Assembly: GCA_937896505.1 (NCBI GenBank)
Contig: CALBNP010000136.1
Location: 11,338 to 75,337, forward strand
Direction: 5' to 3'
From: an uncultured Bacteroidales bacterium
Lineage (GTDB): Bacteria; Bacteroidota; Bacteroidia; Bacteroidales; F082
DNA: 64,000 bases
Shown here: piece by piece, positions 352 through 30,507 of the stretch
Layout: each line of letters opens with the position of its first letter
Position numbering within the stretch: the stretch's first letter is position 1
Program-made: the position numbers and the translations under genes
The notes under the pieces: generated by a model
Databases searched by the model: none
The model's input: only the letters and a program-made list of their open reading frames with translations
Told to the model about the DNA's origin: nothing

Positions 352-399
352 CAGCCGATTTAGGAATTGTTATTGTTTAACCAAATTAAGTTGTTGCTT

Positions 400-3300
400 A
401 TGACTAAGATTTTATCTTCACAGTTGGAACCGGAAATGATTATTGGCAGAGCCTTGAAGCAAGGCGAGACGTTGGTGCCTTTGAGAAACCTTATATCTAT
501 TATCCATAGTGAGGTTGAGGCCGAGGCCGTTGGTTATTTTATTCTGAATAGCTGTTACACCAAGAATTACAAGGAAAGCCTTTTGACATACGAGGATGAT
601 GTTGACGATAAAAAAAGGTTAGAGGCTTTGCGTCATGGGCCAGCAAAACGTGTCCCGTGGCGTAATAATATTTGTTTGGCAAGAATTGACACGAACTATT
701 ACCCAAGCGATGGAATTCATATCGTCAACATTGAGGACAATGAAGGCATTTTGATAGCTGGTTCGACAAAGTTTAATGAAGATGAGACTTTTGTTGGAAC
801 AGAGCCTGATGATGAATTGCCTGTTCATTGGGAAAGAAGAGGCACTTGTCCGAAACTTTACACCTATGGTGATGCTTTTGTGTTCCAAAATATCCGACCT
901 GATATTATCAATACTCAATATTTGCTTCGTGCCTTGACATCAGAAGAGGTGAATATGCAAGTGGAAAATATTTACAGACCTTCATTTGCAAATGGAACGG
1001 TTGGTTACACCGAAGAGGATTTCTTGTCTTTGGCGATTCCTGTACCGAGTCTGGAGGAACAAAAGTTTCTGGTGGATCTTGACTATAATCACATCAACAG
1101 TTCTGATTGTAAGATGGCTTTGAAGAAATATCTTCGGGTTAGAATGAAGAATGTTGAAATCATTGACGCCAAGATGGAATTGCTTTCCCTATTATATGGA
1201 TATGCGGGGGGATCTGATGAAAAGGTATCTAACAGTTTGCCGATTTTTTGTGATGGTATATTAACGGAAAGAGAAATGCTTGTAATAAAACATTTCTCAA
1301 AAGATGTCTTCGATTATATTTTCACTCCGTTAGTCGGTTCCAAAAATGAGTTTTTCGATGTTCCTAACGAATTATCTGATTTCATGTTCAATTTATTGAA
1401 TTTGAATAATGGTGGCAAAGAGGTCGTGTATAACCCATTTGTGAAATTTGGCTCACTAGCCCAGCATGATGCGATATTTGAAGGAGAAGAAATTGACGAA
1501 AAGGCTTGGGCGGTAGCCAAAGCAAGATTGTGTATTGCCGGTATAGAGAATAATTTGACATTGGGAAATCCATTGGATGATTATGGGAAGAGGTATAAGT
1601 ATATTCTAAGTATGCTTCCGTATGGAAGACAGGGAGAGGTGTCGTTGGAGTGCATTGTTTCAACCCTTTATGAAAAAATGGAATTAGGCGGCAGGATGGT
1701 TGTTGGTGTGCCATTTAGTTTCTTAAAAGGAACTGATAGACTTGGAATTAGACAAAGGCTATTGGCAGATGAGGCATTATGTGAAATTTATGTCTTACCA
1801 GAATATTTGATGAAACCAGCTACAGCAGTTCGTCTTGCCGTACTTGTTATAAATAAGGGAGGAACAAATTGTCATGGATACGATAAGGTGCGCATGATTG
1901 ATTTTTCATTTGCGAAAAAGATCAATTACGAGGGAAATGGGGCTAATGTTGACTTTGATATTAAAGCTGCTACAGAGGCCTATGAGCAATATTGTCTTGG
2001 ATTTGAAGACAGAAGTGGCTTAAGTGTGGTTGAAATTCCTTTTGCACAATTGTTGGATACGTCTTTTGAAAGAGAATATGTGATAAATCCTCTCGTCTAT
2101 TTTGCAACATCTCGGATTAAAAGAAAAAAGAAAGATGCAAATTTTGTCAGATTGGGAGATTTGGTCGAGCTGAATCATGAAAACAGGGCTACTGACCCTA
2201 TGAGAATCGTTGATTTAGCATGTTTTCCAAAAGAAGGTATAATTTTGGAAAGTGACTTTGAGAAATTGCCATTGACAAGTCCTGTAGGTCCTTGTAGAAT
2301 ATTGAATTGTGATGGTTTGTTGCTTTCAGGTGTAAAAAGGGGATTGAAATGTATTTGTTTCAAACGCAACGATAAGTTTCCTGTTGCTTATTCCAGTGAC
2401 CGAATTTTTTCTTTAAAGTTAAAGTCTAAAAATGTAGGTCTTGAATTTTTAGCATGTGAGTTAAACGGAGCTGATTATGTTAATGAACAGATAGATGCGC
2501 TGACGGCTGGTAGTGTTTTGCTAAGACTTCGTTCTTTTGAGTTGATGAATATTTTGGTCGATGTTCCTTCTCAGGAAGAACAGGTAAAAAGAGTTGAGTC
2601 ATATAAATCTGCCGAACTTGACAGATTGCTTGGAGAAAAGGGACGGGAAATCAAGATGCAGCATGAGGATTTTGTTCGTCGCGTGAGAAGCAGAAAACAT
2701 GCCATAGGCAATGTTATGGGTGAAGTTGTTCCGGCGTTTGATGGATTGGTTGACTGTTTCAATGAACATGGAGGCAAATTGACTGAATCAGATTTGGTTT
2801 GGAAGGGTTTTGACGACACAGTTGGCTCCGTGATTGCCAAGTTGCAGAAGGAGATCTGTAGAGTGGCTGAGATGGTTTCAAACATGACAAATGCGGTTGA
2901 TGTCGAATTTGGCACTCCTGATGAGTTTGTGGTAAAAGACTTAGTTGAGGATTATATCAGCAGCCATGTCTTCAACAGATGCACTGTCAGGATGAATTAT
3001 AACGAAGAAGCATTTGCTGAGGCTTTGGGTGAACGTAATGAGGTCGCTATAAAAGTTTGCAAGGATGATTTCAATAAAATCCTGGACAACATTGTGACCA
3101 ATGCGGTAAAGCATGGATTTACAGATGAAGGGAAGACATACTATATTGAGTTTGATGTCGCTCCGACTATAATTAATGGTTGTTTGGCTGTCGGAATATC
3201 TGTTCGCAATAATGGAAATCCATTGCCAAAAGGAATGACGGTAGAGAAGGTATTTCAAGAAGGCCAAAGTACTTCTGGCAGTTTTGGCATTGGAGGATGG

Positions 3301-3417
3301 TTCATTAAGAGTGCAGTTGAACAATTTGGAGGGGAGGTTGACATGGATTTGTTTGACCCTGAAGAAAATGATTTTTCGATTGAATATGTTTTGAAGTTTC
3401 CAATTAGTAATCTTTAA
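400..3417 (+). CDS. Fusion protein: HsdS-like TRD, degenerate N6-adenine-methyltransferase-like domain, second TRD, and histidine-kinase core (H-box plus HATPase_c)
   Basis: First ATG at 400; the ORF track starts at TTG 367. TRD-end signatures are AIPVPSLEEQ (1036-1062) and VDVPSQEEQ (2557-2583), the second TRD preceded by FVRLGDLVEL. MTase-like block: FFDVPNELSDFMFNLL, VYNPFVKFGS (1426-1455, where VYDPACGSG is expected), FEGEEID..AKARLCIAGIE, SMLPY (1609-1623, where NPPF/Y is expected), GGRMVVGVPFSFLKG...IYVLPEYLMKPATAVRLAVLVINKG. Kinase core: RSRKHAIGNVM (His codon 2698-2700), N-box NIVTNAVKHG (3100-3117), ISVRNNGNPLP, G2 box SFGIGGW (3286-3297). Confidence 0.8.
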   Translation: MTKILSSQLEPEMIIGRALKQGETLVPLRNLISIIHSEVEAEAVGYFILNSCYTKNYKESLLTYEDDVDDKKRLEALRHGPAKRVPWRNNICLARIDTNYYPSDGIHIVNIEDNEGILIAGSTKFNEDETFVGTEPDDELPVHWERRGTCPKLYTYGDAFVFQNIRPDIINTQYLLRALTSEEVNMQVENIYRPSFANGTVGYTEEDFLSLAIPVPSLEEQKFLVDLDYNHINSSDCKMALKKYLRVRMKNVEIIDAKMELLSLLYGYAGGSDEKVSNSLPIFCDGILTEREMLVIKHFSKDVFDYIFTPLVGSKNEFFDVPNELSDFMFNLLNLNNGGKEVVYNPFVKFGSLAQHDAIFEGEEIDEKAWAVAKARLCIAGIENNLTLGNPLDDYGKRYKYILSMLPYGRQGEVSLECIVSTLYEKMELGGRMVVGVPFSFLKGTDRLGIRQRLLADEALCEIYVLPEYLMKPATAVRLAVLVINKGGTNCHGYDKVRMIDFSFAKKINYEGNGANVDFDIKAATEAYEQYCLGFEDRSGLSVVEIPFAQLLDTSFEREYVINPLVYFATSRIKRKKKDANFVRLGDLVELNHENRATDPMRIVDLACFPKEGIILESDFEKLPLTSPVGPCRILNCDGLLLSGVKRGLKCICFKRNDKFPVAYSSDRIFSLKLKSKNVGLEFLACELNGADYVNEQIDALTAGSVLLRLRSFELMNILVDVPSQEEQVKRVESYKSAELDRLLGEKGREIKMQHEDFVRRVRSRKHAIGNVMGEVVPAFDGLVDCFNEHGGKLTESDLVWKGFDDTVGSVIAKLQKEICRVAEMVSNMTNAVDVEFGTPDEFVVKDLVEDYISSHVFNRCTVRMNYNEEAFAEALGERNEVAIKVCKDDFNKILDNIVTNAVKHGFTDEGKTYYIEFDVAPTIINGCLAVGISVRNNGNPLPKGMTVEKVFQEGQSTSGSFGIGGWFIKSAVEQFGGEVDMDLFDPEENDFSIEYVLKFPISNL

Positions 3418-3428
3418 CTTTAATAGAT

Positions 3429-4634
3429 ATGATGCATAAAGTCTTATGGATTGATGATGAATTAAATCAAGGCAGTTTTATCAGACAAGCAACCAAGTAT
3501 AATCTTGAAATAGAACAGGTTGAGTGTTATTTTGATGGCATCAACAAACTGAAAGGCGGAAAGACTGCTTGTAGTGCGGTTATTCTTGATGTGAACTGCA
3601 AGTATAAGTCGGATGAGGAAGTGACATCTGTTGAGGCAATTCGGGAGCATTTACATGAAATTACCGGATATTGTGAAAGTAAAGACGAAAGACTTGTTCC
3701 TTGGTTCGTTTATACGGCTGGCACAGGTGATGCTGAAGGTTATGTGAATAGTTTGCGAAAGAATAAACCGTGGGACGATGTCGCCTATTACAATAAGGGT
3801 GATGACTATAAGTTGCTTTTTGAGCATATTCAAAATGCAATTGAAAAGGTGCCTTTGAATATGATTCACAAAAAATATGAAGTTGTGTTCAGTGTCTGTC
3901 CAGACAAGAAAGATGAATTGGAGCGCGTGATGTTGGCCGTTGAAAACAACGATTTCAAGGATGCTTCGGCTTTCAATGATATGAGGAAAGTCTTGGGGTG
4001 GGTGAAAAAGAAGCTGGGGATTTTAGGTTTTCTTAGAGAAGATGTTAAGACTTTGCGTGATGTGTCTTATTTCATGAGGCAAATTAGCAAAAAAGATGCT
4101 CAATTTGTTCCGGAGTATATTAGCGGCTCTTTTTATTACGTAGAGGGAGCATCGCAGAATGGAAGCCATGGGGAAGATGATAAAGAGCCTGGCGCGGAGA
4201 ACAACTTGGTCGTTGATAGGGATGTTAAGACTGGTTGTGCGCCTTATTTGCTGAATGGCGTGTTTTATTCGTTGCTGACCTTGATTAATTGGTTGGGGAG
4301 TCTGTCGAATGAGGCTGGCGATGTTGAAGAAAGACGGAATAAAGTGCTGGCCATGAACATACCTTTCGACAAGAAGGATGGCAAAAAACAGGATGATACT
4401 GACCGTGAAGAAAGTGCGAGTAAGGCGATTGAGTTTCCTGAATACGAAGGGAAGGAATTTGTTTTAGAACAGGAAGATGGCATTTTGCATTGTGGGTATT
4501 GCTGTGTGCATGAAGCCCATGTGGGTAAAGTTGGAAAGGCTGTCCGTTTGGAAAATGTTGTTCCCAACACTTGGAAAAATAAATATGAGAAGTATAAATG
4601 CTTTGCAAAGAAAGTGACTGTTGTTGGAGAGTGA
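3429..4634 (+). CDS. REC-like response regulator with an uncharacterised ~260-aa output region
   Basis: Starts 11 nt after the kinase stop. N-terminus has VLWIDDE (D9, D10), AVILDVN (D54 as candidate phospho-acceptor), FVYTAG (T96) and YYNKG (K123), giving CheY-like spacing with one insertion. No motif recognised by eye from residue ~145 on. Cys/His-rich tail HCGYCCVHEAH...KYKCF. Confidence 0.6.
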   Translation: MMHKVLWIDDELNQGSFIRQATKYNLEIEQVECYFDGINKLKGGKTACSAVILDVNCKYKSDEEVTSVEAIREHLHEITGYCESKDERLVPWFVYTAGTGDAEGYVNSLRKNKPWDDVAYYNKGDDYKLLFEHIQNAIEKVPLNMIHKKYEVVFSVCPDKKDELERVMLAVENNDFKDASAFNDMRKVLGWVKKKLGILGFLREDVKTLRDVSYFMRQISKKDAQFVPEYISGSFYYVEGASQNGSHGEDDKEPGAENNLVVDRDVKTGCAPYLLNGVFYSLLTLINWLGSLSNEAGDVEERRNKVLAMNIPFDKKDGKKQDDTDREESASKAIEFPEYEGKEFVLEQEDGILHCGYCCVHEAHVGKVGKAVRLENVVPNTWKNKYEKYKCFAKKVTVVGE

Positions 4635-6613: not shown

Positions 6614-7474
6614 ATGGATTTGACTATGGAACCGAATATAGATATTAACCTTGCAAACGGTAACACCACATCTCCGCAGTTCAACGAAGTGCTGGAAATG
6701 ATTAAGGCAGCGAAGCAAAAGGTTTTTGCTGCCGTCAACACGTCATTGATAGACCTCTATTGGCAAATAGGTTGCTACATAAGCCAGCAAGTAGAAAAAT
6801 CCGGCTGGGGCAAGTCGGTAGTGGAGGAACTGGCCAACTACATACGTACTCAGGAGCCAAATTCCGAAGGTTTCTCCAAACAAAACCTATGGCGTATGAA
6901 GCAGTTTTACGAGACCTATAAAGATGCCGATGAAAAACTCTCAGCACTGCTGAGAGAAATTGCGCCAAAGGCAGAAAGCATTTTCCGCGACCACTACGTG
7001 ATGGAGTTTGTGGGCGAACAAAACGGCAAGCCTGAAAACACGTTCCGCAAAACTTTGATAGCCAGGATGCGTGATTTCATTCTCGAACTCGGAAAGGATT
7101 TCATCCATATTAAAGACGAATTTCATTTGCAGGTGGGGAACAGCGATTTTCGCATCGACCTGCTTTTCTACCATAGGGAATTGCAATGCTTGGTGGCTTT
7201 TGAGCTGAAAACAGAGAAGTTTAAGCCCGAACATTTGGGACAGCTCAACTTCTATCTCGAAGCGCTCGACCGCGATGTGAAGAAGCCCCACGAAAATCCC
7301 AGTATTGGGGTGCTGCTTTGCAAGAGCAAAGACGACGAAGTGGTGGAGTATGCACTTAGCCGCAGTCTTTCGCCAACAATGGTGGCCGAATACGAACTGA
7401 AACTGCCTGACAAGGCCTTGCTGCAACGCAAAATGCAGGAATTGGCAGAACTAATAGACGACGAACAAGAATAA
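6614..7474 (+). CDS. YhcG/DUF1016-family PD-(D/E)xK nuclease-like protein inserted between hsdM and hsdS
   Basis: SLIDLYWQIGCYI..WGKSVVEELANYI..GFSKQNLWRMKQFYETY in the N-terminal part, and FRIDLLFYHRELQCLVAFELKTEKFKPEHLGQLNFYLEALD..IGVLLCKSKDDEVVEYAL as the PD-(D/E)xK core. At 286 aa it looks shorter than I would expect for this family. Confidence 0.8.
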   Translation: MDLTMEPNIDINLANGNTTSPQFNEVLEMIKAAKQKVFAAVNTSLIDLYWQIGCYISQQVEKSGWGKSVVEELANYIRTQEPNSEGFSKQNLWRMKQFYETYKDADEKLSALLREIAPKAESIFRDHYVMEFVGEQNGKPENTFRKTLIARMRDFILELGKDFIHIKDEFHLQVGNSDFRIDLLFYHRELQCLVAFELKTEKFKPEHLGQLNFYLEALDRDVKKPHENPSIGVLLCKSKDDEVVEYALSRSLSPTMVAEYELKLPDKALLQRKMQELAELIDDEQE

Positions 7475-7486
7475 CACTTCAGAAGT

Positions 7487-8620
7487 ATGGCATTGAGTAA
7501 AATTAGATTAGGAGATATTGTAATTCCATATAAAAACAAATGTGGGAATCCCCATTTAACACCATACGAAGTCTCTGGCGTTAATAGAGATAAAGAGTTC
7601 TTCGAACCTTCTCACCAAGTCGGTGCAGATACTGAAAATTATCAAAACGTTCCACCCCATTTTTTCGCATGTAATTTGATGCATGTTGGTAGAGATGTTG
7701 TCTTGCCAATTGCATTTAATCATACGGATTCCATCAAACACGTAAGCCCTGCTTATACAGTCTTTTCCTTAAAAAAGAATGTTGGAATATTGGAAGAATA
7801 TTTCTTTTTATACTTAAAATCAGACGAACGTGATAGGTATTTTTGGTTCCATACAGATTCTTCAGTGCGGGATGGAATGTCTTGGGAAGATTTTTGCGAT
7901 ATTGAAATCGACCTTCCTTCGCTCGACATCCAGCAGAAGTACGTGGACGTATATAACGCGATGTTGGCCAACCAGCAGAACTACGAGCGCGGACTGGAGG
8001 ATTTGAAACTCGTGTGTCAAGGTCATTTTGATATTGCCAAAAAGGAACATTGTGTGAAGCTCGGTGAGATTATCGAAAAGGTTGACAAACGTAATAACGA
8101 TTTGGCCTATGGAAGTGAAGATGTTCGAGGAATAACAAATAAGAAACAATTCGATGATACGAAGGCTGATTTGATAGGAGTTGACATTTCCAAATTCAAA
8201 ATTATAGATAATGGCGTCTTCGCCTATAATAGTCGTACTGACGGTCGTGACATGCTTGTTGTTGCATTGAATAATACGCAGCAATCGTATATAGTAACTT
8301 TTAACTATAACGCATTTAGAATAAAAGAAGATTGCCGCAAGGTGATGAATTCAGACTATTTGTATTGTTATTTCTGCCGCCCTGAGTTTGATCGGTTGGT
8401 TAGGTTTAATTCTTGGGGCTCATCACAAGAACTACTTTCTTGGGATAATCTTTGTGATATTTCGGTTCCTTGTCCACCGTATGAGGAACAGATATCTATT
8501 GCTAATGCCTTTGATGTATACAAAGAAAGAATGTCTGTAAACGAGCAATTGAAAACACAGATAAAGGACATTTGTCCGATATTGATAAAAGGGAGTATTG
8601 AGGAAGGGAGAAAGAATTGA
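7487..8620 (+). CDS. hsdS: Type I restriction-modification specificity subunit with two TRDs
   Basis: IRLGDIV start, central conserved helix region IEIDLPSLDIQQKYVDVYNAMLANQQNYERGLEDLKL, second TRD ending ISVPCPPYEEQISIANAFDVYKERMSVNEQLK. Confidence 0.9.
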   Translation: MALSKIRLGDIVIPYKNKCGNPHLTPYEVSGVNRDKEFFEPSHQVGADTENYQNVPPHFFACNLMHVGRDVVLPIAFNHTDSIKHVSPAYTVFSLKKNVGILEEYFFLYLKSDERDRYFWFHTDSSVRDGMSWEDFCDIEIDLPSLDIQQKYVDVYNAMLANQQNYERGLEDLKLVCQGHFDIAKKEHCVKLGEIIEKVDKRNNDLAYGSEDVRGITNKKQFDDTKADLIGVDISKFKIIDNGVFAYNSRTDGRDMLVVALNNTQQSYIVTFNYNAFRIKEDCRKVMNSDYLYCYFCRPEFDRLVRFNSWGSSQELLSWDNLCDISVPCPPYEEQISIANAFDVYKERMSVNEQLKTQIKDICPILIKGSIEEGRKN

Positions 8621-8639
8621 AAAATAAAGGAGGTTGGTT

Positions 8640-11024
8640 ATGAAAGTTACTAAAATTAAAACGATTAAGAATCTTGCAGTATTTAAGGATTTTCAATGGG
8701 ATGACTGCGTTAAAGACAAGGATGGAAGAATCCAAACTTTTCAAGACATAAATATCATATATGGCAGAAATTATTCAGGAAAAACAACTTTGTCAAGAAT
8801 ATTTCGAGCATTTGAAACTGGGAAAATATCTGATAAATATGCAAATCCCGAATTCCAATTAGAATTCAAGGATGGAGGATGTGTTGGCCAAACTCAAATT
8901 AACAACAAGCAAGATTTCCGAGTCTTTAACTCTGATTTTATTGATGAAAATTTATCAATCCTTCGAGATTCAGATAGTGGTAAAATTCAGCCTTTCGCGA
9001 TATTAGGAGATGGTAATGCCACTTTAGCATCAGAGATAGAAAGCCTTCAAAATGAATTAGGCAAAAATGCAGAAGAAGAGAAAACTGGTTTATATAAAGA
9101 ACTGGGCGATAAAGAAAAAGCATACAAAGACGCTGACAAAAAGTATAACGACGCTGACAAATCGTTAAGCAAACGCCTGACTGATAAAGCCAGCCAAATG
9201 AAGAATCAAAATGGCAACTTTGTTTCTCCTAATTATGACAAAACAAAATTAAAGTCAGATATAGAACAACTTTCTAGCTTTACTTTTAAAACAGAACAAG
9301 AAATAACAGACTTAAAAAAACTGTTGCAAGAAGAAACAAAAGCGAGTATTCGAAAAGCCTCCGCTTCGCTACAGTATGACACTTTAGTTTCAGAAACAAA
9401 AATTTTGTTAGCCCGCAAAGTTGAAAGTGCAGATAAAATTCGAGAACTTGTAGAAAACTCTTTGTTGAATAACTGGGTAAAAGAAGGACTTGATTTACAT
9501 AAAGAAAGAAATACGTGTGCTTTCTGTGGTCAACCTCTTTCATCTGATAGATTGGAAATGTTGCAACATCATTTTAATGAAGAAATGGATGCTCTTCAAA
9601 ATGATTTGAGAACAGAGATAACAAAGATTGAGGACGAAAAGACGAATGCCAAGAAAATAGTTGAAAACATAAGTGAAACCAATTTATATGTTAAGTTTCA
9701 AAATGATGCAAAAGCAAGTTTGGAAAGCATTAAAAAGATAATTTCTAATTATTGTCAAGAGTTGGATAAGCTATCTACTCAATTAGAAAATAAAAAGAAA
9801 AATGTGTTTCATGAACTTGTTTTTGTGGAACCAGATGATTTTACACAACAGATTTTAGATGCACTTACGGATTTTAACAAAATTGTAGAGGACGCAATTA
9901 CATATGGGAATAATTTACAGAAGGAAAAGGATGAAGCAAAAAATACACTTCGGCTCAATGTGGTCAAACAATTTGTTGACGACATTAAATATTCGGATTT
10001 ATGTAAAGAAATAGACAATCTAAAAAAAGAAGCGGATCAGAAAAAAACTGAATTTGACAATTTTAAGAATGATGTTAATCAAAAAGAAAAAGAACTTGCA
10101 ATTAAGAAATCACAGTTGAATGACGAAGAAAAAGGTGCAATCAAAGTCAATGAATATTTAACAAATTTCTTTGGTCACGAATTTCTACAATTAGTTCCAA
10201 TAAAGGAAGAATCGGAAAACGCAGACGCAAAGCACTATCGTTTCGAAATCCAAAGAAATGGCAGTAAAGCGTATAATTTAAGTGAAGGAGAATGCAGGTT
10301 GGTTGCTTTCTCTTATTTTATGGCTAAACTCAACGACACAGAAACCGCAGGCAAAAAGCCATTAATTTGGATAGATGACCCGATTTGCTCTTTAGATGCA
10401 AACCATGTATTCTTTGTATACTCTTTGATTTCTTCAGAAATTGCAATAAAAGATAATTTTGAACAACTTTTCATCACAACTCATAACTTGGATTTTCTGA
10501 AGTATCTGAAAAGACTAAAAAGCAAATATGTTGATAACGACAGAGATCGTTCTAAAGGATATTTCATTATAGAAAGAAAAAATGATGATACGAATTTGAT
10601 GGTTATGCCAAAATATATGAAGGATTTCGTCACAGAGTTCAATTATTTATTCGATTCTATATATAAATGTGCGAATTCAGAATTAAGTGAAGAAACGTAT
10701 CCTCTATTCTATAATTTCAGCAATAATGCTCGCAAATTTTTAGAAATATACCTATTTTACAAATATCCAGATGATAGTGAAGATAGAGTAAAGCAAGAAA
10801 GCTTTTTTGGAGAAAAGATACCCGTTTTTTTGAATGAGAGGGTTACTAATGAATATTCTCATTTAAAAGGCGATATAGAACGAGCATCAAATCCTGTTGA
10901 ATATCCTGTTGAAACGATGAAAAAAGATGCACAAATGATTCTTGAATGTATACAACATCATGATCAAAAGCAATATGATGCCCTCCTTAATAGTATAGGT
11001 GTTAGTGTTTCACCAACAGAATAA
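8640..11024 (+). CDS. rloC: RloC-like anticodon nuclease (AAA_13/ABC-type ATPase head with coiled-coil CxxC hook and PrrC-like C-terminal nuclease region)
   Basis: ATG at 8640 (ORF track starts at TTG 8634). Walker A GRNYSGKT (8763-8786). A ~370-aa Lys/Glu-rich coiled-coil insert carries CAFC (9516-9527). ABC signature-like LSEGECRL, Walker B LIWIDDPICSLD, FITTHNLDF. C-terminal R-x3-E (ARKFLE, 10731-10745) plus NEYSH (His 10860-10862), matching the PrrC/RloC Arg-Glu-His triad pattern. Sits between hsdS and hsdR. Confidence 0.75.
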   Translation: MKVTKIKTIKNLAVFKDFQWDDCVKDKDGRIQTFQDINIIYGRNYSGKTTLSRIFRAFETGKISDKYANPEFQLEFKDGGCVGQTQINNKQDFRVFNSDFIDENLSILRDSDSGKIQPFAILGDGNATLASEIESLQNELGKNAEEEKTGLYKELGDKEKAYKDADKKYNDADKSLSKRLTDKASQMKNQNGNFVSPNYDKTKLKSDIEQLSSFTFKTEQEITDLKKLLQEETKASIRKASASLQYDTLVSETKILLARKVESADKIRELVENSLLNNWVKEGLDLHKERNTCAFCGQPLSSDRLEMLQHHFNEEMDALQNDLRTEITKIEDEKTNAKKIVENISETNLYVKFQNDAKASLESIKKIISNYCQELDKLSTQLENKKKNVFHELVFVEPDDFTQQILDALTDFNKIVEDAITYGNNLQKEKDEAKNTLRLNVVKQFVDDIKYSDLCKEIDNLKKEADQKKTEFDNFKNDVNQKEKELAIKKSQLNDEEKGAIKVNEYLTNFFGHEFLQLVPIKEESENADAKHYRFEIQRNGSKAYNLSEGECRLVAFSYFMAKLNDTETAGKKPLIWIDDPICSLDANHVFFVYSLISSEIAIKDNFEQLFITTHNLDFLKYLKRLKSKYVDNDRDRSKGYFIIERKNDDTNLMVMPKYMKDFVTEFNYLFDSIYKCANSELSEETYPLFYNFSNNARKFLEIYLFYKYPDDSEDRVKQESFFGEKIPVFLNERVTNEYSHLKGDIERASNPVEYPVETMKKDAQMILECIQHHDQKQYDALLNSIGVSVSPTE

Positions 11025-11035
11025 TAATTTTAACC

Positions 11036-14000
11036 ATGTCCAAACTCACCAATTACAACGGCCGTTACTGCGAAAGCGAGTTCGAGAATGCCTTCATTGC
11101 TTTCTTGGAGCAAGAAGGTTGGCACTATACATTAGGCAACAAGATAAAGCGCACCAACAAGACGGATGTGCTCATCGAGGAAGACTTCAAAGAGTTCATT
11201 GCCAACATGAATGATGACTTGACGGGCGAGGAAATCGACCGCCTGTTTGATATGGTTAGGCTTGTGGGTGCTGAGACTGATTTCGCCACGCTGCATAAGG
11301 TGTATTGCTGGATGGTGAACGGGGTGCAGTTCGTGCCAGAGAACGGACAGGCGCGAATGGTCAGCTTGATTGACTTTGACCCGGAGCATCCTGAAAAGAA
11401 CATTTTCAGGGCGGTGAACCAATTCACCGTGGAATATACCAACAATGGCCAGAAAGAGAACCGCCGTCCCGATGTGCTGCTGTATGTCAACGGTATGCCG
11501 CTTTGCATCGTCGAGCTGAAAAACCCTGCCGATGCCAATGCGACCGTGTTTGACGCATGGGAGCAGATTACGATTCGTTACTGGCGCGACATTCCGCATC
11601 TTTTGCACTATTGCCCATTGGCGTGCATCAGCGATGGCGTTCACACCCGATTGGGCACGGTGAAGACCCCCTACGAGCATTTCTATGCCTGGCGTCGTGT
11701 GAATGAAGGTGATAAGGTGACGACAATGCCGTTTGATGAGACGAAGAAGATGATACAGGGCGTTTATTCGCCAGCACGTTTCCTGGAGATTTTCCGTGAC
11801 TACATCTATTTCCGTGATGCAGAATATGACGGCGATGAGTTTGAGTTGGTTTGCCGTTATCCACAATTCTTCGCCACGAAGCTGCTGAAGCAAAGCGTCA
11901 TCGACTCGGTACAGCAAGGCAACGGGAAGGGAGGAACCTACTTTGGCGCTACGGGATGCGGGAAAACCTATACGATGGCTTTCCTTGCCCGCCAATTGGC
12001 GCTTCGCTGCACTGACATTATTGGCTCGCCAACCATCATCATGATTGTTGACCGCGACGACTTGCAGGAACAAGGTTCGAAACTCTTCACGAAGAGTTCG
12101 GAGTTTCTGAATTTGGGAGCGGTTGAAGTAGTGCCGACGCGCAAAGATTTGAGAAATGAACTGAAGAAAAGGGAAAGCGGCGGCTTCTACATCTGCACCA
12201 TTCAGAAATTTTGCGACCGAAGCGATGATGCCATGGGACTCATCAACGAGCGGAGGAACATCATCTGTTTTTCGGATGAGGCACACCGCACGCAACTGGA
12301 ACATAGCAAGCAAATCAGATTCTGCAAAGATGCTGATGAGAATATGAAAGCCGTGGTTTCGAAGCCCTACGCTAAGGTGTTGAAAGAGGCGTTTCCCCAT
12401 GCCACTTTCGTCGGCTTTACGGGCACGCCTATCGCAGAGACCTATCAGACTTTTGGCGAAGAGATAGACCGCTACACCATGGACCAGGCAGTGGCCGATG
12501 AAATCACAGTGCCGATAAAATACCATCCGCGCATCGCGAAGGTTCTTTTGGATCCAGAGAAGGTGAAAGAGATAGAGCGTTATTACGGCAAATGCGCCGA
12601 CGAAGGTGCAGATGAAAAGGAAATCAATGCCAGCAAAATGGCGATGAGTTCGATGGAGGTGATATTAGGGGAGCCATCGCGCTTGGCGCGCTTGGCGGAT
12701 GACATTCATTCGCATTATCTTTCAGCCTGTGAAAACGACCCTGAACGCATCCAAAAAGCAATGGTGGTATGCTCCAACAGGACTATCGCCTATAACCTTC
12801 TTTGCTTATTCAGAGAGAAATATCCTGAGTGGTTTGTGGAGAAAAAGACACCAGATGGCGTTGCTGTGACTGATGAAGAACTGAAGAAACTGAAGCCTAT
12901 GCCCTTTATGGCTATGGTGGCCAGCGTGGGAAGCAATGACCCGGCAGAGATGTATAACTATCTTGGCGGTGTCAAGAACAATGCCAGAAATAAGGACTAT
13001 GGAGAAGCCTTTAAGGCGGAAAAGTCCAATTTCCGTATTGTCGTGGTGGTGGATATGTGGATAACAGGTTTTGATGTTGAGCCATTGACCTACATGTATA
13101 ATGACAAGCCGTTGCAGAAGCATCTGCTCATCCAAACCATTAGCCGCGTGAACCGCAAGTACCCGGGCAAAAAATACGGCATGATCGTTGACTATATTGG
13201 CATCCGTGACAATATGCGTGTGGCCGTGAAGATGTATGGCGGCGACAACAGCGTTGCGCCTACGGCGGATGATGTTGAGCAAGGCACGATTATTTTCAGG
13301 GAGGAGCTGGAGATATTGAAGAGAATGTTTGCGGGTTATGACCTCGCGCCATTCCTGAACCCAGATACCGACCCGATTGACAGATATACCCTGCTGGCCA
13401 AGGCAGCCGAATTTGTGTTTTCTTCAACAGAAGAAATGAATTCGGAAGGTGAAAATGGCAAGGGACCTAAAAAGGTGACATTCAAGACATATTTCCTGCA
13501 ATCGGTCAAACGATTGCGGGTTGCTTACGACATTTGTCAGCCGTCGGGAGAGCTTGGTGAGGAAGAATCAGCACTGGCACAATGTTTCATGGCTATTGCA
13601 GGATTTGTCCGCAAGATGAATGGAACGAGCGATATAGATGCAGAGACAATGAACCGTAAGGTTGCGGTCATGGTTGAAGAGGCGTTGAAATACAATAAGG
13701 TTGAGAGCGTTCTCGAAGAGGGACAAACGGAAGACATCATTAGTCCGGAGTATTATGAATCGCTTGAAGATGTTCCGATGCCCGCATCGAAGCTGGAACT
13801 GCTTATCAAGTTGCTGAAGAAACAGATTCGGGAGTATGGCCGCACCAATGGCGTGGAGGCGAAGAAGTTCCAGGAGCTGTTGGAACAGACCATCAAACAA
13901 TACCACGAAAGGCGTAAGCACCTCAGTGCAAGTGAGGCAGGAAAGACACAGGAAGAAGCCGTGGAAGACATCGTGAAGAATGCCACCGAGCAAGCCTTGT

Positions 14001-14596: not shown

Positions 14597-14809
14597 ATGG
14601 TTAATGAAAATGTTATATTTCAGGTACTTGCAGAGCAAAAGGAAGAAACAAAGAATTACGACACTCAAAAATGGGTTTCCCGCAAAGAGGAATCGTTGTT
14701 TGAGTTCGACAGCAAGTTGGCACTTGCGCAACAAACGTGGATATGTGGAAAGTCTGTTGGAAGCCATATAATTTCGCGAATTATTTGTTTGGATTTTGTC
14801 AGAAAATAG
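14597..14809 (+). pseudogene. Possible 5' fragment of an AAA_14/DUF4143-type ATPase gene
   Basis: The 70-aa ORF MVNENVIFQVLAEQKEE...SRKEESLFEFDSKLALAQQTWICGKSVG resembles the N-terminus and degenerate Walker A (cf. LLLRGARQTGKST in the intact gene at 14904). The frame then runs into the 33-bp repeats and stops. Confidence 0.3.
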
Positions 14810-14873
14810 CAAATTATTTGTTTGGATTTTGTCAGAAAATGGCGAATTATTTGTTTGGATTTTGTCAAAAAAC
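14779..14873. repeat. Three tandem 33-bp repeats (AATTATTTGTTTGGATTTTGTCAGAAAAT plus a 4-nt linker)
   Basis: Copies start at 14779, 14812 and 14845. Copies 1 and 2 share an identical 29-nt core; copy 3 differs at 2 positions near its 3' end. The array abuts the promoter of the ATPase gene. Confidence 0.9.
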
Positions 14874-14874
14874 G

Positions 14875-14882
14875 TATTTTTG
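14875..14882 (+). promoter_or_regulatory. Candidate -7 box (TATTTTTG), with a -33-like TTTG at 14850-14853 inside repeat copy 3
   Basis: TAnnTTTG lies 21 nt upstream of ATG 14904. The TTTG sits 21 nt upstream of the -7 box. Confidence 0.5.
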
Positions 14883-14903
14883 CAAAATCAAAATCAAGTA
14901 ATT

Positions 14904-16277
14904 ATGTATTACGAAAGGATAATTGACAAATATCTATGGGAATGGGCAGGCGCAGAAAGCCATAAACCGCTTCTGCTAAGAGGTGCCAGACAGACGGGAA
15001 AATCAACAGCCGTAAGGCATTTGGGCGAGCGTTTTGATACTTATGTGGAGATTAACTTTGAGAAGCGCCCAACTTACAAAGACCTGTTCGCCAAGGATCT
15101 CGACATCAAAAGAATCCTTCCGCTTTTGTCGGTGATGAGCAGGAAGACCATTGCCCCCGGCAAAACCTTGTTGTTCCTTGATGAAATACAAGAATGCCCT
15201 AATGCAATAATGGCGTTACGTTATTTTTGGGAGGACATGCCAGAACTCCATGTAGTGGCCGCTGGATCTCTCTTGGAATTTGCCTTGGACGAACTGCCAA
15301 CTTTCGGTGTCGGCCGCATCCATTCGATGTATATGTATCCAATGACATTCGACGAGTTTCTTATGGCCAATGGTGAACATTTGTTGCTGAATGAACGGAA
15401 CAACGCTTCCGCTTCCAATCCACTCGATGAAACTGTGTGCGTAGAGCTAATTGATTATTTGCGTACTTATATGCTTGTCGGTGGCATGCCTGAAAGTGTC
15501 GCTAAATGGGTTGAGACACACGATTTCAACCAATGCCAACAAGTTCAAGATGATATTTTGACTGGTTATGAGGATGATTTCCCAAAATATAGGAAAAAGG
15601 TTGATCCTCAACTGCTTCGCCAGACTTTGAGAAGTGTTGCAGTTCAGACATCTAGAAAGTTTGTGTATTCGCAGGTTCCTGGCGAATATAAATCTGCCGA
15701 TATCAAAAAAGCACTTGAACTGCTCATGAAGTCGGGTATCGTTATCCCCGTTACTCATTCAAATGCCAACGGATTGCCTTTGGGGAACGAAATCGAGCAA
15801 AGTTTCCGAAAAATGCTATTGCTTGACACGGGTCTGATGCTTCGTTTGATGAATATGGCGATGGGCAATACAGAGGAAATAACGACTCAAATCCTTACTT
15901 CGTCAGCGGCTGATTTGGTAAATAAAGGAGTCGTTTCGGAAATGTTGGTTGGCCTTGAATACCTTCATTATCAAACTCCCAACATGCGCCATGAGTTGTT
16001 CTATTGGGTGCGACAATCGAAGAATTCTTTGGCCGAAATTGATTATGTGATGCCATACAACTTAAAAGTGATTCCCGTGGAAGTGAAGGCGGGAGTGCAA
16101 GGTGGGATGAAAAGTCTATGGGAATTCATGCGTGAAAAGAATCTTACCTACGCCGTAAGGTGTTCGCTTGAGAACTTCGGCAAGTTTGAATACGTTGACT
16201 CCAAAGCAGATGATGCTGTCAGGCAAGTGACGATATGCCCAATTTATTCAATTTCGCAAATGGGTCGCCTGTTGTGA
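14904..16277 (+). CDS. AAA+ ATPase (AAA_14 plus DUF4143 type)
   Basis: Internal ATG at 14904 gives MYYERIIDKYLWEW...PLLLRGARQTGKST (Walker A) and LLFLDEIQ (Walker B). The upstream 36 codons of the ORF only translate the tandem repeats. Confidence 0.85.
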   Translation: MYYERIIDKYLWEWAGAESHKPLLLRGARQTGKSTAVRHLGERFDTYVEINFEKRPTYKDLFAKDLDIKRILPLLSVMSRKTIAPGKTLLFLDEIQECPNAIMALRYFWEDMPELHVVAAGSLLEFALDELPTFGVGRIHSMYMYPMTFDEFLMANGEHLLLNERNNASASNPLDETVCVELIDYLRTYMLVGGMPESVAKWVETHDFNQCQQVQDDILTGYEDDFPKYRKKVDPQLLRQTLRSVAVQTSRKFVYSQVPGEYKSADIKKALELLMKSGIVIPVTHSNANGLPLGNEIEQSFRKMLLLDTGLMLRLMNMAMGNTEEITTQILTSSAADLVNKGVVSEMLVGLEYLHYQTPNMRHELFYWVRQSKNSLAEIDYVMPYNLKVIPVEVKAGVQGGMKSLWEFMREKNLTYAVRCSLENFGKFEYVDSKADDAVRQVTICPIYSISQMGRLL

Positions 16278-17790: not shown

Positions 17791-19674
17791 ATGGCAGAAA
17801 ACGAAAACATCATCAACGAGGCTATGCCAGCAGAAGAAAAGCCAGTTGAAAAAGCCCCTAAGGCTCCTAAGCAAAAACCAGTTCCAGCAGCAGATTTCGA
17901 CTGGTCATCCTCACACAAGAAGTTCGACAACTACTCAGACGACGAGCGCGCTAAGCTCGAAGAAAAGTATGCCGGCACAATGAACCAAGTCGTCGATCAC
18001 GACGTCATCGAAGGTACCATCGTCGCCATCACTTCACGCGAAGTGGTTGTCAACATTGGCTTCAAGTCAGATGGTGTTATTCCGTCAGCAGAATTCCGTA
18101 CCGAACCTAACATCAAGGTTGGCGACAAGGTAGAGGTTTACGTTGAAAACCAAGAAGGTGTCAACGGCCAACTCGTGCTTTCACACAAGAAGGCTCGCCT
18201 CCTCAAGTCATGGGATCGCGTCAACGCAGCTTTCGAAAGCGGCGAAATCGTCAATGGTCTTGTCAAGAGCCGCACCAAGGGCGGTCTCATCGTCGATGTG
18301 TTTGGCCTCGAAGCCTTCCTTCCTGGCTCACAAATCGATGTCAAGCCTATCCGCGACTACGACGTATTCGTTGACAGCGTGATGGAATTCAAAGTCGTGA
18401 AGATCAACCAGGAATTCAAGAACGTGGTTGTCTCTCACAAAGCCCTCATCGAAGATGAACTCGAAGCCCAGAAGGCTGAAATCATCGGCAAGCTCGAAAA
18501 GGGTCAAGTCCTCGAAGGCGTGGTCAAGAACATCACCTCCTACGGCGTGTTCATCGACCTCGGTGGCGTTGATGGTCTCATCCACATCACCGACCTCAGC
18601 TGGGGCCGCATCAACCACCCAGAAGAAGTCGTCACCTTGGACGAAAAGATCAAGGTCGTCATCCTCGACTTCGACGACAACAAGAAGCGTATCGCCCTCG
18701 GCCTCAAGCAACTCACCCCACATCCATGGGAAGCTCTCGATGCTAACCTCAACGTTGGCGACACCGTTAAGGGTAAGGTCGTCGTCGTTGCCGATTACGG
18801 CGCATTCGTCGAAATCGCTCCTGGCGTTGAAGGCCTCATCCACGTTTCGGAAATGTCGTGGTCACAACACCTCCGCACCGCTCAGGACTTCCTGAAGGTT
18901 GGCGACGAAGTGGAAGCCAAGATTTTGACTCTCGACCGCGAAGAACGCAAGATGTCACTCGGCATGAAGCAACTCATGCCAGACCCATGGGCAAGCATCG
19001 CCGAACGTTATGCTATCGGTACCAAGCACACCGCTACCGTGCGTAACTTCACCAACTTCGGCATCTTCGTCGAACTCGAAGAAGGCGTCGATGGCCTGAT
19101 CCACATCAGCGACCTCAGCTGGTCGAAGAAGATCAAGCACCCGGCTGAATTCACTAAGGTTGGCGAAACCATCGAAGTCGTCGTCCTCGACGTCGATCAA
19201 GAAAACCGTCGCCTCAGCCTCGGCCACAAGCAACTCGAAGAAAATCCTTGGGATGTGTTTGAAACCGTGTTCACCGTCGGTTCGATGCAACAAGGCACCG
19301 TCATCAACGCTTCTGACAAGGGCGTTCTCGTCTCATTGCAATATGGCGTCGAAGGCTTCTGCCCAAGCCGCTACAGCAAGAAGGAAGATGGCAGCAACGC
19401 TAAGGTTGACGACACCCTCGAATTCAAGGTTCTTGAGTTCAACAAGGAATCGAAGAAGATCATCCTTGCTCTTCCACGCCCAGCAGCAGCCGAAGAGAAA
19501 GAAGCTCCTAAGTCAGCAGAAGAAAAGGCAGCCGACAAGGCCGCTAAGCAAGCCAAACGCGCTGTGAAACAAATCAATGACACCATTGAACGCAGCACCC
19601 TCGGCGACCTCGACATCCTCGCTGGCCTGAAGGAAAACCTCGAAAAGGAAGAACAAGCCGCTAAAGGCGAATAA
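17791..19674 (+). CDS. rpsA: 30S ribosomal protein S1
   Basis: Six S1 repeats (e.g. GTIVAITSREVVVNIGFKSDG, GLVKSRTKGGLIVDVFGLEAFLPGSQI, GVVKNITSYGVFIDLGGVDGLIHITDLSW). Confidence 0.97.
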   Translation: MAENENIINEAMPAEEKPVEKAPKAPKQKPVPAADFDWSSSHKKFDNYSDDERAKLEEKYAGTMNQVVDHDVIEGTIVAITSREVVVNIGFKSDGVIPSAEFRTEPNIKVGDKVEVYVENQEGVNGQLVLSHKKARLLKSWDRVNAAFESGEIVNGLVKSRTKGGLIVDVFGLEAFLPGSQIDVKPIRDYDVFVDSVMEFKVVKINQEFKNVVVSHKALIEDELEAQKAEIIGKLEKGQVLEGVVKNITSYGVFIDLGGVDGLIHITDLSWGRINHPEEVVTLDEKIKVVILDFDDNKKRIALGLKQLTPHPWEALDANLNVGDTVKGKVVVVADYGAFVEIAPGVEGLIHVSEMSWSQHLRTAQDFLKVGDEVEAKILTLDREERKMSLGMKQLMPDPWASIAERYAIGTKHTATVRNFTNFGIFVELEEGVDGLIHISDLSWSKKIKHPAEFTKVGETIEVVVLDVDQENRRLSLGHKQLEENPWDVFETVFTVGSMQQGTVINASDKGVLVSLQYGVEGFCPSRYSKKEDGSNAKVDDTLEFKVLEFNKESKKIILALPRPAAAEEKEAPKSAEEKAADKAAKQAKRAVKQINDTIERSTLGDLDILAGLKENLEKEEQAAKGE

Positions 19675-30457: not shown

Positions 30458-30464
30458 GGGACTG

Positions 30465-30472
30465 CAAATGTA
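30465..30472 (-). promoter_or_regulatory. Candidate -7 box (TACATTTG on the minus strand) for the hybrid kinase
   Basis: Reverse complement of CAAATGTA; only 7 nt upstream of ATG 30457. Confidence 0.35.
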
Positions 30473-30483
30473 GTTTTTTTTCT

Positions 30484-30491
30484 TATTTTTG
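30484..30491 (+). promoter_or_regulatory. Candidate -7 box (TATTTTTG)
   Basis: TAnnTTTG 16 nt upstream of ATG 30508. Confidence 0.4.
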
Positions 30492-30507
30492 CGCAAATTA
30501 TTTAGCC

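Follow-up and report, generated by a model that had tools for sequence, protein, structure and literature searches.

A Candidate Response Regulator with a Divergent HEPN-Like Output Domain and Its Restriction-Like Partner Kinase in Bacteroidales

The 64,000-nt window analyzed here comes from an uncultured Bacteroidales bacterium (contig CALBNP010000136.1 of assembly GCA_937896505.1, positions 11,338 to 75,337) and opens with a cassette of three genes on the forward strand. The third of these, at 3429–4634, is the subject of this report. This open reading frame (ORF) starts with ATG and encodes a protein of 401 amino acids (N-terminus MMHKVLWIDD), which we describe, on the basis of the ORF listing, 135 homologs, and an AlphaFold2 (AF2) model, as a response regulator made of a receiver (REC) domain, a HEPN-like helical domain, and a small beta-barrel. 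It is preceded by the gene of a partner histidine kinase (367–3417, +), 1016 aa long as listed. The original prediction, made from the sequence alone, had placed the receiver gene 11 nt after the kinase stop, and the ORF listing gives the same spacing (3417 to 3429). Further upstream, the window edge truncates a gene for a BrxR/CapW-like WYL-WCX regulator, of which only the 3′ end is included (1–342, +; Pfam WCX, E = 5.6e-17). Homologous loci carry full-length WYL+WCX genes at the same position. The spacer between the WYL and kinase genes contains a Bacteroidetes-type −7 promoter box, TACTTTTG (344–351, +), from which the two downstream genes had been predicted to be co-transcribed; a TAnnTTTG box is found at this place in 8 of the 9 loci examined.

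The ORF at 3429–4634 certainly codes for a protein, judging by its 135 homologs at E ≤ 1e-3 (top E = 2.9e-265) and by the 760 clusters (50% identity) retrieved when a profile of the helical domain was compared with 1.84 billion representative proteins. In nearly all of these clusters, the helical domain is preceded by a receiver-sized N-terminus. No Pfam domain is recorded for any of the homologs, and those that have a name are all called "hypothetical protein." Scans of the 401-aa protein with Pfam, NCBIfam, and PADLOC gave no match, so the earlier statement that the output region matches nothing holds for routine tools. Designed helical repeats and chemoreceptor coiled coils were all that the PDB returned when searched by sequence, with the protein or the domain profiles as query. 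The GTDB scan with the single receiver protein as query gave no match; the GTDB pattern search succeeded with a trimmed alignment, the full alignment being too divergent. No relatives were found in IMG/VR or in plasmids. The species-level loci are Bacteroidales metagenome-assembled genomes throughout, plus one Geobacteraceae contig. The family is large, has no annotation at all, and is found chiefly in Bacteroidales of the human and animal gut. Conservation in the family was counted among 126 representatives at 50% identity, and a separate alignment (A1) contains 45 sequences. As a side observation, an unannotated human fecal phage contig (MT835483.1, 18443–18952) matched weakly in tblastn (E = 4e-4, 25.6% identity), over the receiver part alone, residues 1–154.

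According to its predicted fold and its active-site residues, the N-terminus (residues 1–140; 3429–3848, +) is a CheY-like, functional-looking receiver. AF2 modeled the whole protein from the 45-sequence alignment with a mean pLDDT of 88.8, as alternating strands and helices over residues 1–140, an all-helical region over 142–330, and a beta-rich tail over 343–398. The strands of the first part (3–8, 26–31, 50–53, 92–96, and a beta-bridge at 121–122), with helices between them, make up a (beta-alpha)5 fold. With the whole model as query, Foldseek retrieved from the PDB receiver domains alone (PorX, PmrA, CheY, RssB, and others) at a probability of 1.00, with TM-scores (target) of 0.70–0.73 for PmrA receiver domains and 0.61–0.64 for CheY. 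The signature residues that had been read by eye in CheY-like order, the acidic pair D9/D10, the putative phospho-acceptor D54 (in AVILDV), T96 (in WFVYT), and K123 (in YYNK), are present and conserved in both sequence sets. D9, D10, D54, and K123 are invariant in the 45-sequence alignment; among the 126 representatives, D9 is kept in 109, D10 in 112, D54 in 118, T or S at 96 in 122, and K123 in 117 (87–97%), and four lack the receiver entirely. Pfam Response_reg did not match the 401-aa protein at E ≤ 0.1. It matched 4 of the 126 members weakly (best E = 0.0085), and the family consensus reached 17 bits, below the cutoff of 30.2.

The output domain that follows (residues ~141–312; 3849–4364, +) had been called unassignable. 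This part of the original prediction does not stand: Pfam, profile–profile comparison, and predicted topology converge, with good probability, on a divergent HEPN-like domain related to DUF4145 and PrrC/RloC. DUF4145, which belongs to the HEPN clan, is the commonest Pfam match, found in 13 of the 126 representatives (best E = 3.9e-4). The consensus of the domain hidden Markov model also matches it, below threshold (E = 5.7e-4, 20.3 bits for a gathering cutoff of 23.1), from the helix bearing R186 to slightly beyond H247; the 401-aa protein itself gave no DUF4145 match. We compared the domain by hhalign with the C-terminal nuclease domain of the RloC/PrrC-like protein encoded in the window. The P value was 0.0024 with a 26-sequence profile and 5.7e-4 with the 126-sequence profile (score 28.1, probability 29.5%), where reversed profiles scored ~14 and 119 column-shuffled templates 12.2 ± 1.8, with a maximum of 16.9. 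The alignment sets fNxiRKiLE on NNxRKFLE and NeGSH on NEYSH.

These two stretches correspond to conserved motifs. Helix 2 carries N183-x2-R186-K187-x-L-G190, position 190 being E or D in 82% of the family; helix 3 ends in Q243-N-G-S-H247; and helix 4 bears A271-P-Y-L...W288. H247 and W288 are kept in 126 of the 126 representatives, R186 in 125, S246 in 113, G245 in 109, and N183 and E/D190 in 103 each. At the level of the family, R186-x3-E/D190...H247 reproduces the Arg320-Glu324-His356 triad to which the catalysis of EcoPrrC was attributed by mutagenesis and chemical rescue (PMC1484252). In the AF2 model, helix 229–246 ends in GSH247 and is followed by a loop, and helix 209–222 forms an insert between the two motif helices. 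In the HEPN topology described by Anantharaman et al. (PMC3710099), the catalytic His is located where helix 3 terminates, and inserts occur between helices 2 and 3; the predicted placement of H247 and of the extra helix fits this description. The Foldseek search proposed earlier for the output region was run with residues 141–401 modeled alone (pLDDT 90.9) and gave no significant match (best E = 0.59 in the PDB and 0.24 in BFVD). The weak matches of higher probability (≤0.35) share a single theme, HEPN, with HepT/MntA-HepT (TM-score (target) 0.45–0.49) and Csm6; the RAZR entries 9Y9C and 9Y6U are absent from the top 50 PDB matches. Pfam and related scans of the protein and of the 126 representatives did not reveal a DNA-binding output. 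Neither of the outcomes named beforehand as adverse, a DNA-binding output with a housekeeping regulon or an N-terminus that is not a receiver, occurred.

The C-terminal tail (residues ~340–401; 4446–4631, +) is modeled as a small beta-barrel, b1-b2-b3, short helix, b4-b5. Strands 343–345, 347–349, 352–355, and 358–360 form a short N-terminal beta-meander, followed by a short helix (362–367) and two long strands (371–379 and 391–398), with pLDDT values of 83–97 except for the final few residues. This predicted topology makes an OB-like RNA-binding barrel plausible. Fold searches of the PDB and BFVD with the output model that includes the tail gave no significant match, and the consensus of the common tail type has no Pfam match; S1CSD-TOTE-2 is matched by 2 of the 126 members (4.8e-4) and OB_RNB by one. 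Homology with S1 domains was also considered, and hhalign against the S1 repeats of the rpsA product encoded in the window does not support it (P = 0.56, no similarity). The tail is optional in the family: it is missing from homologs of ~300–330 aa, and some carry other modules instead, such as LRR in P0135. It had been described as Cys/His-rich, with a possible metal-binding or OB-like module. Cys and His are indeed present in the 401-aa protein, within HCGYCCVHEAH; among the rows listed from the 45-sequence alignment, the "HCG" Cys is the only one found again in many of the tailed homologs, the remaining Cys and His being variable or absent. As these residues are not conserved, a metal site is unlikely, and we rejected it.

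The partner kinase combines modules in the order TRD, pseudo-N6-methyltransferase, TRD, DHp, and CA, as indicated by Pfam matches to Methylase_S, N6_Mtase, and HATPase_c and by PADLOC Type I specificity-subunit matches in two regions. Among the best 25 of its 29 PADLOC matches, there are methylase, specificity-subunit, and mad models only; the mad2 match is confined to residues 375–514, within the methylase-like region, and a literature search on MADS turned up nothing relevant. We aligned 13 kinases, of which one (locus L005) is devoid of the methylase-like module, and compared the 12 others with the HsdM encoded in the window. The module (kinase residues ~340–553; 1384–2025, +) has degenerate motifs. 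Motif I reads VVYNPFVKFGS versus LYDPACGSGG in HsdM, with a degenerate S-adenosylmethionine loop, and motif IV reads SMLPY, versus NPPF in HsdM, and [STV]PPF, EVPW, or a fully degenerate sequence in the homologs. None of the 12 retains the catalytic Asn/Asp of motif IV. We infer from these alignments that the methylase-like module is catalytically dead and would serve as a sensor; it looks like a pseudo-methyltransferase kept as a reader of DNA or bases. The motifs of the kinase core for phospho-His and ATP binding are intact. The predicted phospho-acceptor His, H778 in the 1016-aa numbering (codon 2698–2700, +), lies in the H-box RSRKHAIGN, and the motif R-x-[RSK]-[KQ]-H is kept in 13 of the 13 kinases. 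The N, G1, and G2 boxes are invariant and belong to a HATPase_c catalytic domain (3067–3348, +; PF02518, E = 9.5e-07, above the cutoff). These features, with the translational coupling of the two genes in 13 loci, bear out the designation of the kinase as the cognate one.

The listed start of the kinase, TTG at 367, is only 16 nt past the −7 box at 344–351, and in contig L030 the orthologous gene is annotated with the ATG corresponding to position 400 as its start, giving 1005 aa. The true start is, on these two grounds, probably the ATG at 400, and the kinase would be 1005 aa long. The kinases of the window and of L030 share 98.7% identity, and the TRD swapping that we considered for such near-identical cassettes was not seen.

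In four of the representatives (P0216, P0224, P0227, and P0243; 519–575 aa), the methylase-like/TRD sensor is fused straight to the helical domain, and both the kinase core and the receiver are absent. The four fusion proteins retain the R, H, and W residues of the helical domain. We examined the genomic loci of P0216 and P0243, which are encoded by complete genes immediately behind a WYL-WCX gene. These fusions link the sensor and the helical domain functionally, and they also argue for the kinase–receiver pair being a relay inserted between them. The invariant, predicted solvent-exposed H247 on a helical bundle following a receiver could also be read as an HPt-like phospho-acceptor, the protein being then an intermediate that passes phosphate from D54 to H247 and on to some terminal regulator; a rice HPt protein does occur far down the fold list, at a probability of 0.04. 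We rejected this reading, which is hardly credible, as proteins lacking both the kinase core and the receiver still keep the equivalent of H247; moreover, a second receiver gene is absent from the cassettes, and the motifs fit a HEPN nuclease and not the HxxKG of HPt.

Synteny was compared over the window and 26 loci, and two contigs (L030 and L031) were added later. The window and 13 other loci share the order WYL-WCX regulator, kinase, receiver protein, and the spacing between the kinase and receiver genes varies from −29 to +24 nt over 13 loci; L031 and the regulator-less contig L030 agree with this pattern. None of the cassettes contains a stand-alone receiver gene. Defense genes are inserted between the WYL regulator and the kinase in L001 (a Type I restriction–modification (R-M) system) and in L003 (DUF1016 and a TOTE system). 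At other loci, the defense genes are TOTE, GmrSD, colicin-DNase, and Zeta toxin genes. Downstream of the cassette, the genes differ from locus to locus, and R-M genes are wholly lacking in L005 and L007. The distribution of the cassette is patchy, in variable islands. As the cassette always lies behind a WYL-WCX regulator and within defense islands, the C-terminal region is probably the output of a defense-type cassette, in agreement with the original prediction of an effector or adaptor, which was conditional on the pair being a defense sensor.

The cassette of the window is directly followed by a Type I R-M system into which an RloC-like gene and a DUF1016 gene are inserted. The former (8634–11024, +) encodes a 796-aa AAA_13 protein matched by the PADLOC models PDC-S06 and PrrC, and is placed between hsdS and hsdR, like prrC in the EcoprrI locus. 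The C-terminal domain of this protein has the motifs NNxRKFLE and RxxNEYSH, and its homologs are named "wobble nucleotide-excising tRNase" (RloC). Between hsdM and hsdS, a gene at 6614–7474 (+) encodes a DUF1016_N + YhcG PD-(D/E)XK nuclease (PADLOC PDC-S02); in L003, a longer (409-aa) DUF1016_N + YhcG_C gene follows the WYL gene. A gene for an AAA_14 + DUF4143 ATPase (14796–16277, +) lies at the end of the island, and from ~16.3 kb onward come genes of housekeeping appearance, among them those for an aminotransferase and ribosomal protein S1 (17791–19674). L005 belongs to an abundant clade with short kinases and encodes a 454-aa kinase with an unassigned N-terminus and a 299-aa regulator. Its cassette is followed, at 10915–13212, by HAD/phosphoribosyltransferase-like and DprA/DNA_processg_A-like genes, 9–14 nt apart; among the loci compared, these two genes occur only there and in the near-duplicate contig L006, which has the same regulator, P0113.

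Two-component genes are abundant in Bacteroidales, and the window itself encodes, at 28022–30496 (−), a hybrid sensor kinase of conventional make-up (HisKA + HATPase_c + Response_reg) that has no relation to the cassette. The kinase and receiver protein might accordingly be a housekeeping pair that happens to lie beside restriction genes and regulates, for example, methylation or phase variation, and a clade of homologs 65–78% identical across Paludibacteraceae species (described below) resembles core genes in this respect. We consider this very unlikely: the output is not DNA-binding, the sensor is a dead restriction-type methylase, and the cassette is headed by a BrxR/CapW-type WYL-WCX regulator and patchily distributed in variable islands.

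We favor, with a probability of about one half, the interpretation of the system as a Detocs-like defensive two-component system with a phospho-activated, HEPN-like RNase effector. The 401-aa protein would be the effector response regulator of a three-gene defense-type cassette that comprises the WYL-WCX regulator, the cytoplasmic kinase, and the receiver-HEPN protein. The kinase might sense DNA or an anti-restriction signal through its dead Type-I-restriction-like module, two TRDs around a pseudo-methyltransferase, then autophosphorylate at H778 and hand the phosphate to D54. Phosphorylation of D54 would turn on the HEPN-like domain, probably through dimerization of the receiver; as a general rule, HEPN RNases have composite active sites at dimer interfaces (PMC13017515, PMC3710099). 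The activated domain may then cut RNA (tRNA or other single-stranded RNA), with the beta-barrel assisting as an RNA-binding module, and with growth arrest or abortive infection as the expected result. In this scheme, the gene, its fold, its conserved residues, the synteny, and the profile similarity are shown by our analysis, and the signal, phosphotransfer, dimerization, RNase activity, and role in defense are the parts that we infer.

Several observations weigh against this interpretation. The canonical Arg of the HEPN Rx4-6H motif is missing family-wide. No subgroup has an Arg at −5 to −8 of the His, and position −7 from H247 is often acidic across the family; the lost residue corresponds to R117 of the RloC-like alignment. 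The PrrC-type triad is itself incomplete in the 401-aa protein because G190 replaces the catalytic Glu. This protein belongs to a subclade with G, A, or S at position 190 (20 of the 45 sequences in A1), 18 of these 20 carrying an acidic residue at 184. Every homology signal for the output domain falls below curated thresholds, yet the signals are mutually consistent, and neither the PDB nor BFVD yielded a significant structural match to the output-domain model. HEPN folds may be noncatalytic, as in MtlR (PMC3710099); families that keep the His without the Arg also exist, the c2405 family of the DUF4145-like group being described as "conserved H, no R" (PMC3710099).

These observations could be accommodated by a noncatalytic regulator, in which the phosphorylated HEPN-like domain and barrel bind a specific RNA and control the translation or transcript stability of neighboring defense genes. 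Besides the absent Arg, the subclade without the PrrC-type Glu, and the documented noncatalytic HEPN families (PMC3710099), the RNA-binding-like tail fits such a role, and response regulators with RNA-binding outputs exist, EutV being among our fold matches by virtue of its receiver. Nevertheless, the conservation of H247 and W288 in 126 of 126 and of R186 in 125 of 126 representatives resembles an active site more than a binding surface, the tail is missing from many members, and the downstream neighbors, not being conserved, provide no fixed regulatory target. We therefore regard an RNA-binding regulator as unlikely, and keep the RNase effector as the preferred reading.

Two further difficulties for the RNase effector concern gene neighborhoods. 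The direct-fusion genes are each followed by a gene of ~160 aa (L027, 3039–3530; L028, 2267–2758; L029, 5922–6401) whose product shows by eye a GIY-YIG-like spacing (GVY...YIGKA...R...E...N). Pfam detected it at E = 0.06–0.09 in one of the two proteins scanned and not in the other. This gene could be the real effector of the direct-fusion cassettes. In addition, some homologs are orphans without an adjacent kinase. In a Paludibacteraceae clade (L014–L020, 65–78% mutual identity), in which the regulator lies at ~8000–9130, both the kinase and WYL genes are absent. The three loci of this clade that were scanned differ in what is encoded just upstream: a triple-AAA ATPase plus a low-molecular-weight phosphatase in one, a TIR protein of 955 aa in another, and a fusion of a Ser/Thr kinase with AAA in the third; in the last of these (L019), a TPR-CHAT protease gene lies downstream. 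Such varied neighbors suggest a defense hotspot or alternative sensors.

From such neighborhoods one may also conceive of the phosphorylated protein as an adaptor that switches on a separate effector, whether the Type I enzyme, an RloC-like nuclease, or the GIY-YIG-like protein. The Type I R-M locus with its RloC-like gene directly follows the cassette in the window, the GIY-YIG-like gene is always present after the direct-fusion variants, and the orphan clade has variable upstream genes and, at one locus, TPR-CHAT downstream. However, the kinase–regulator cassettes have no downstream partner in common, L005 and L007 contain no R-M genes at all, the GIY-YIG assignment is weak (E = 0.06–0.09), and the conserved R/E/H motifs of the helical domain mirror a catalytic site. 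An adaptor function seems to us improbable in view of these points, and we retain a HEPN-like domain that would itself act as the effector.

A more speculative version of the RNase effector, which we put forward with considerable doubt, specifies the signal. The dead methylase/specificity module might be a decoy or guard of restriction, reporting unmethylated foreign DNA or anti-restriction DNA mimics from phages, of the Ocr/ArdA/Stp type, and activating a PrrC-type anticodon nuclease domain by His–Asp phosphotransfer. If true, this would be a self-contained phosphorelay form of the "second-strike" logic of EcoprrI-PrrC, and the first case of a HEPN RNase as the output of a response regulator, widespread in gut Bacteroidales. 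In the broader interpretation, a sensor derived from a disabled restriction methylase suggests a histidine kinase that reads DNA or anti-restriction proteins directly, the effector would join a phospho-receiver to a HEPN RNase, and hundreds of "hypothetical proteins" gain a domain assignment.

The output domain shares features with several known RNases. Its motifs N-x2-R-K-x-L-E (helix 2) and N-E-x-S-H (where helix 3 ends) follow each other as in the anticodon nucleases PrrC and RloC; the domain keeps the R-x3-E...H triad of PrrC at the family level and, like both nucleases, is logically linked to Type-I-restriction-like proteins. Unlike in PrrC and RloC, whose regulatory N-terminus is an ABC ATPase, this region is a phospho-receiver; the Arg of RxxNEYSH is missing and, in the 401-aa protein, Gly occupies the position of the catalytic Glu, a long helical insert separates the motifs, and three extra helices precede them. 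DUF4145 (PF13643) is the best Pfam match, which starts at helix 2 and takes in the invariant His. It is a divergent HEPN RNase domain of phage defense, often tied to restriction systems (PMC13017515, PMC3710099), and a proven defense RNase domain in RAZR (PMC13017515). RAZR (PD-T7-4) requires R146 and H154 (R-x7-H), whereas the equivalent Arg is absent from the response-regulator family, and it is activated by assembly on phage rings, whereas phosphorylation is proposed here.

With respect to gene organization, the Response_reg_2/HEF_HK pairs, cytoplasmic kinase-like and receiver-like proteins enriched beside R-M systems, including in Bacteroides (PMC8011034), similarly associate cytoplasmic kinase and receiver genes with R-M. 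They belong to other families than our pair, the HEF_HK kinases being paraMORC-related (HATPase_c_3). PF19192 and PF19191 gave no Pfam match with the receiver protein or the kinase, and are not among the 25 families listed for the 126 representatives. As in BrxR/CapW operons, a WYL+WCX regulator lies immediately upstream, and the regulated genes have their own promoter box; by contrast, the kinase and REC-HEPN cargo matches no system named in PADLOC or in the published descriptions that we compared. Full-text literature searches did not turn up a response regulator with a HEPN output domain. In the DefensePredictor study, HATPase and REC are among the domains of predicted, unvalidated systems, with no detail that can be linked to the receiver-HEPN family.

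The closest parallel is Detocs (DtcA/DtcB/DtcC), in which a kinase and a REC-effector protein work as a phage defense, the effector domains are swappable, and the His and Asp phospho-sites are required (10.1101/2023.01.24.525353). PADLOC v2 gave no match to Detocs or any other named system for the receiver protein or the family consensus (0 families each), and for the kinase the best 25 of 29 matches include none beyond methylase, specificity-subunit, and mad models. Our cassette differs from Detocs by the lack of a gene for the buffer receiver DtcB; by its TRD/pseudo-methyltransferase sensor (Methylase_S/N6_Mtase-like), that of DtcA being TPR; by its HEPN-like effector, those of Detocs being PNP, REase, TOPRIM, or membrane hydrolase; and by the WYL-WCX regulator that heads its operon. 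Like Detocs, it pairs a cytoplasmic sensor kinase with an adjoining response regulator in which an effector replaces the DNA-binding output. If our interpretation is correct, the cassettes described here would constitute, beside Detocs, a second and unrelated family of defensive two-component systems.

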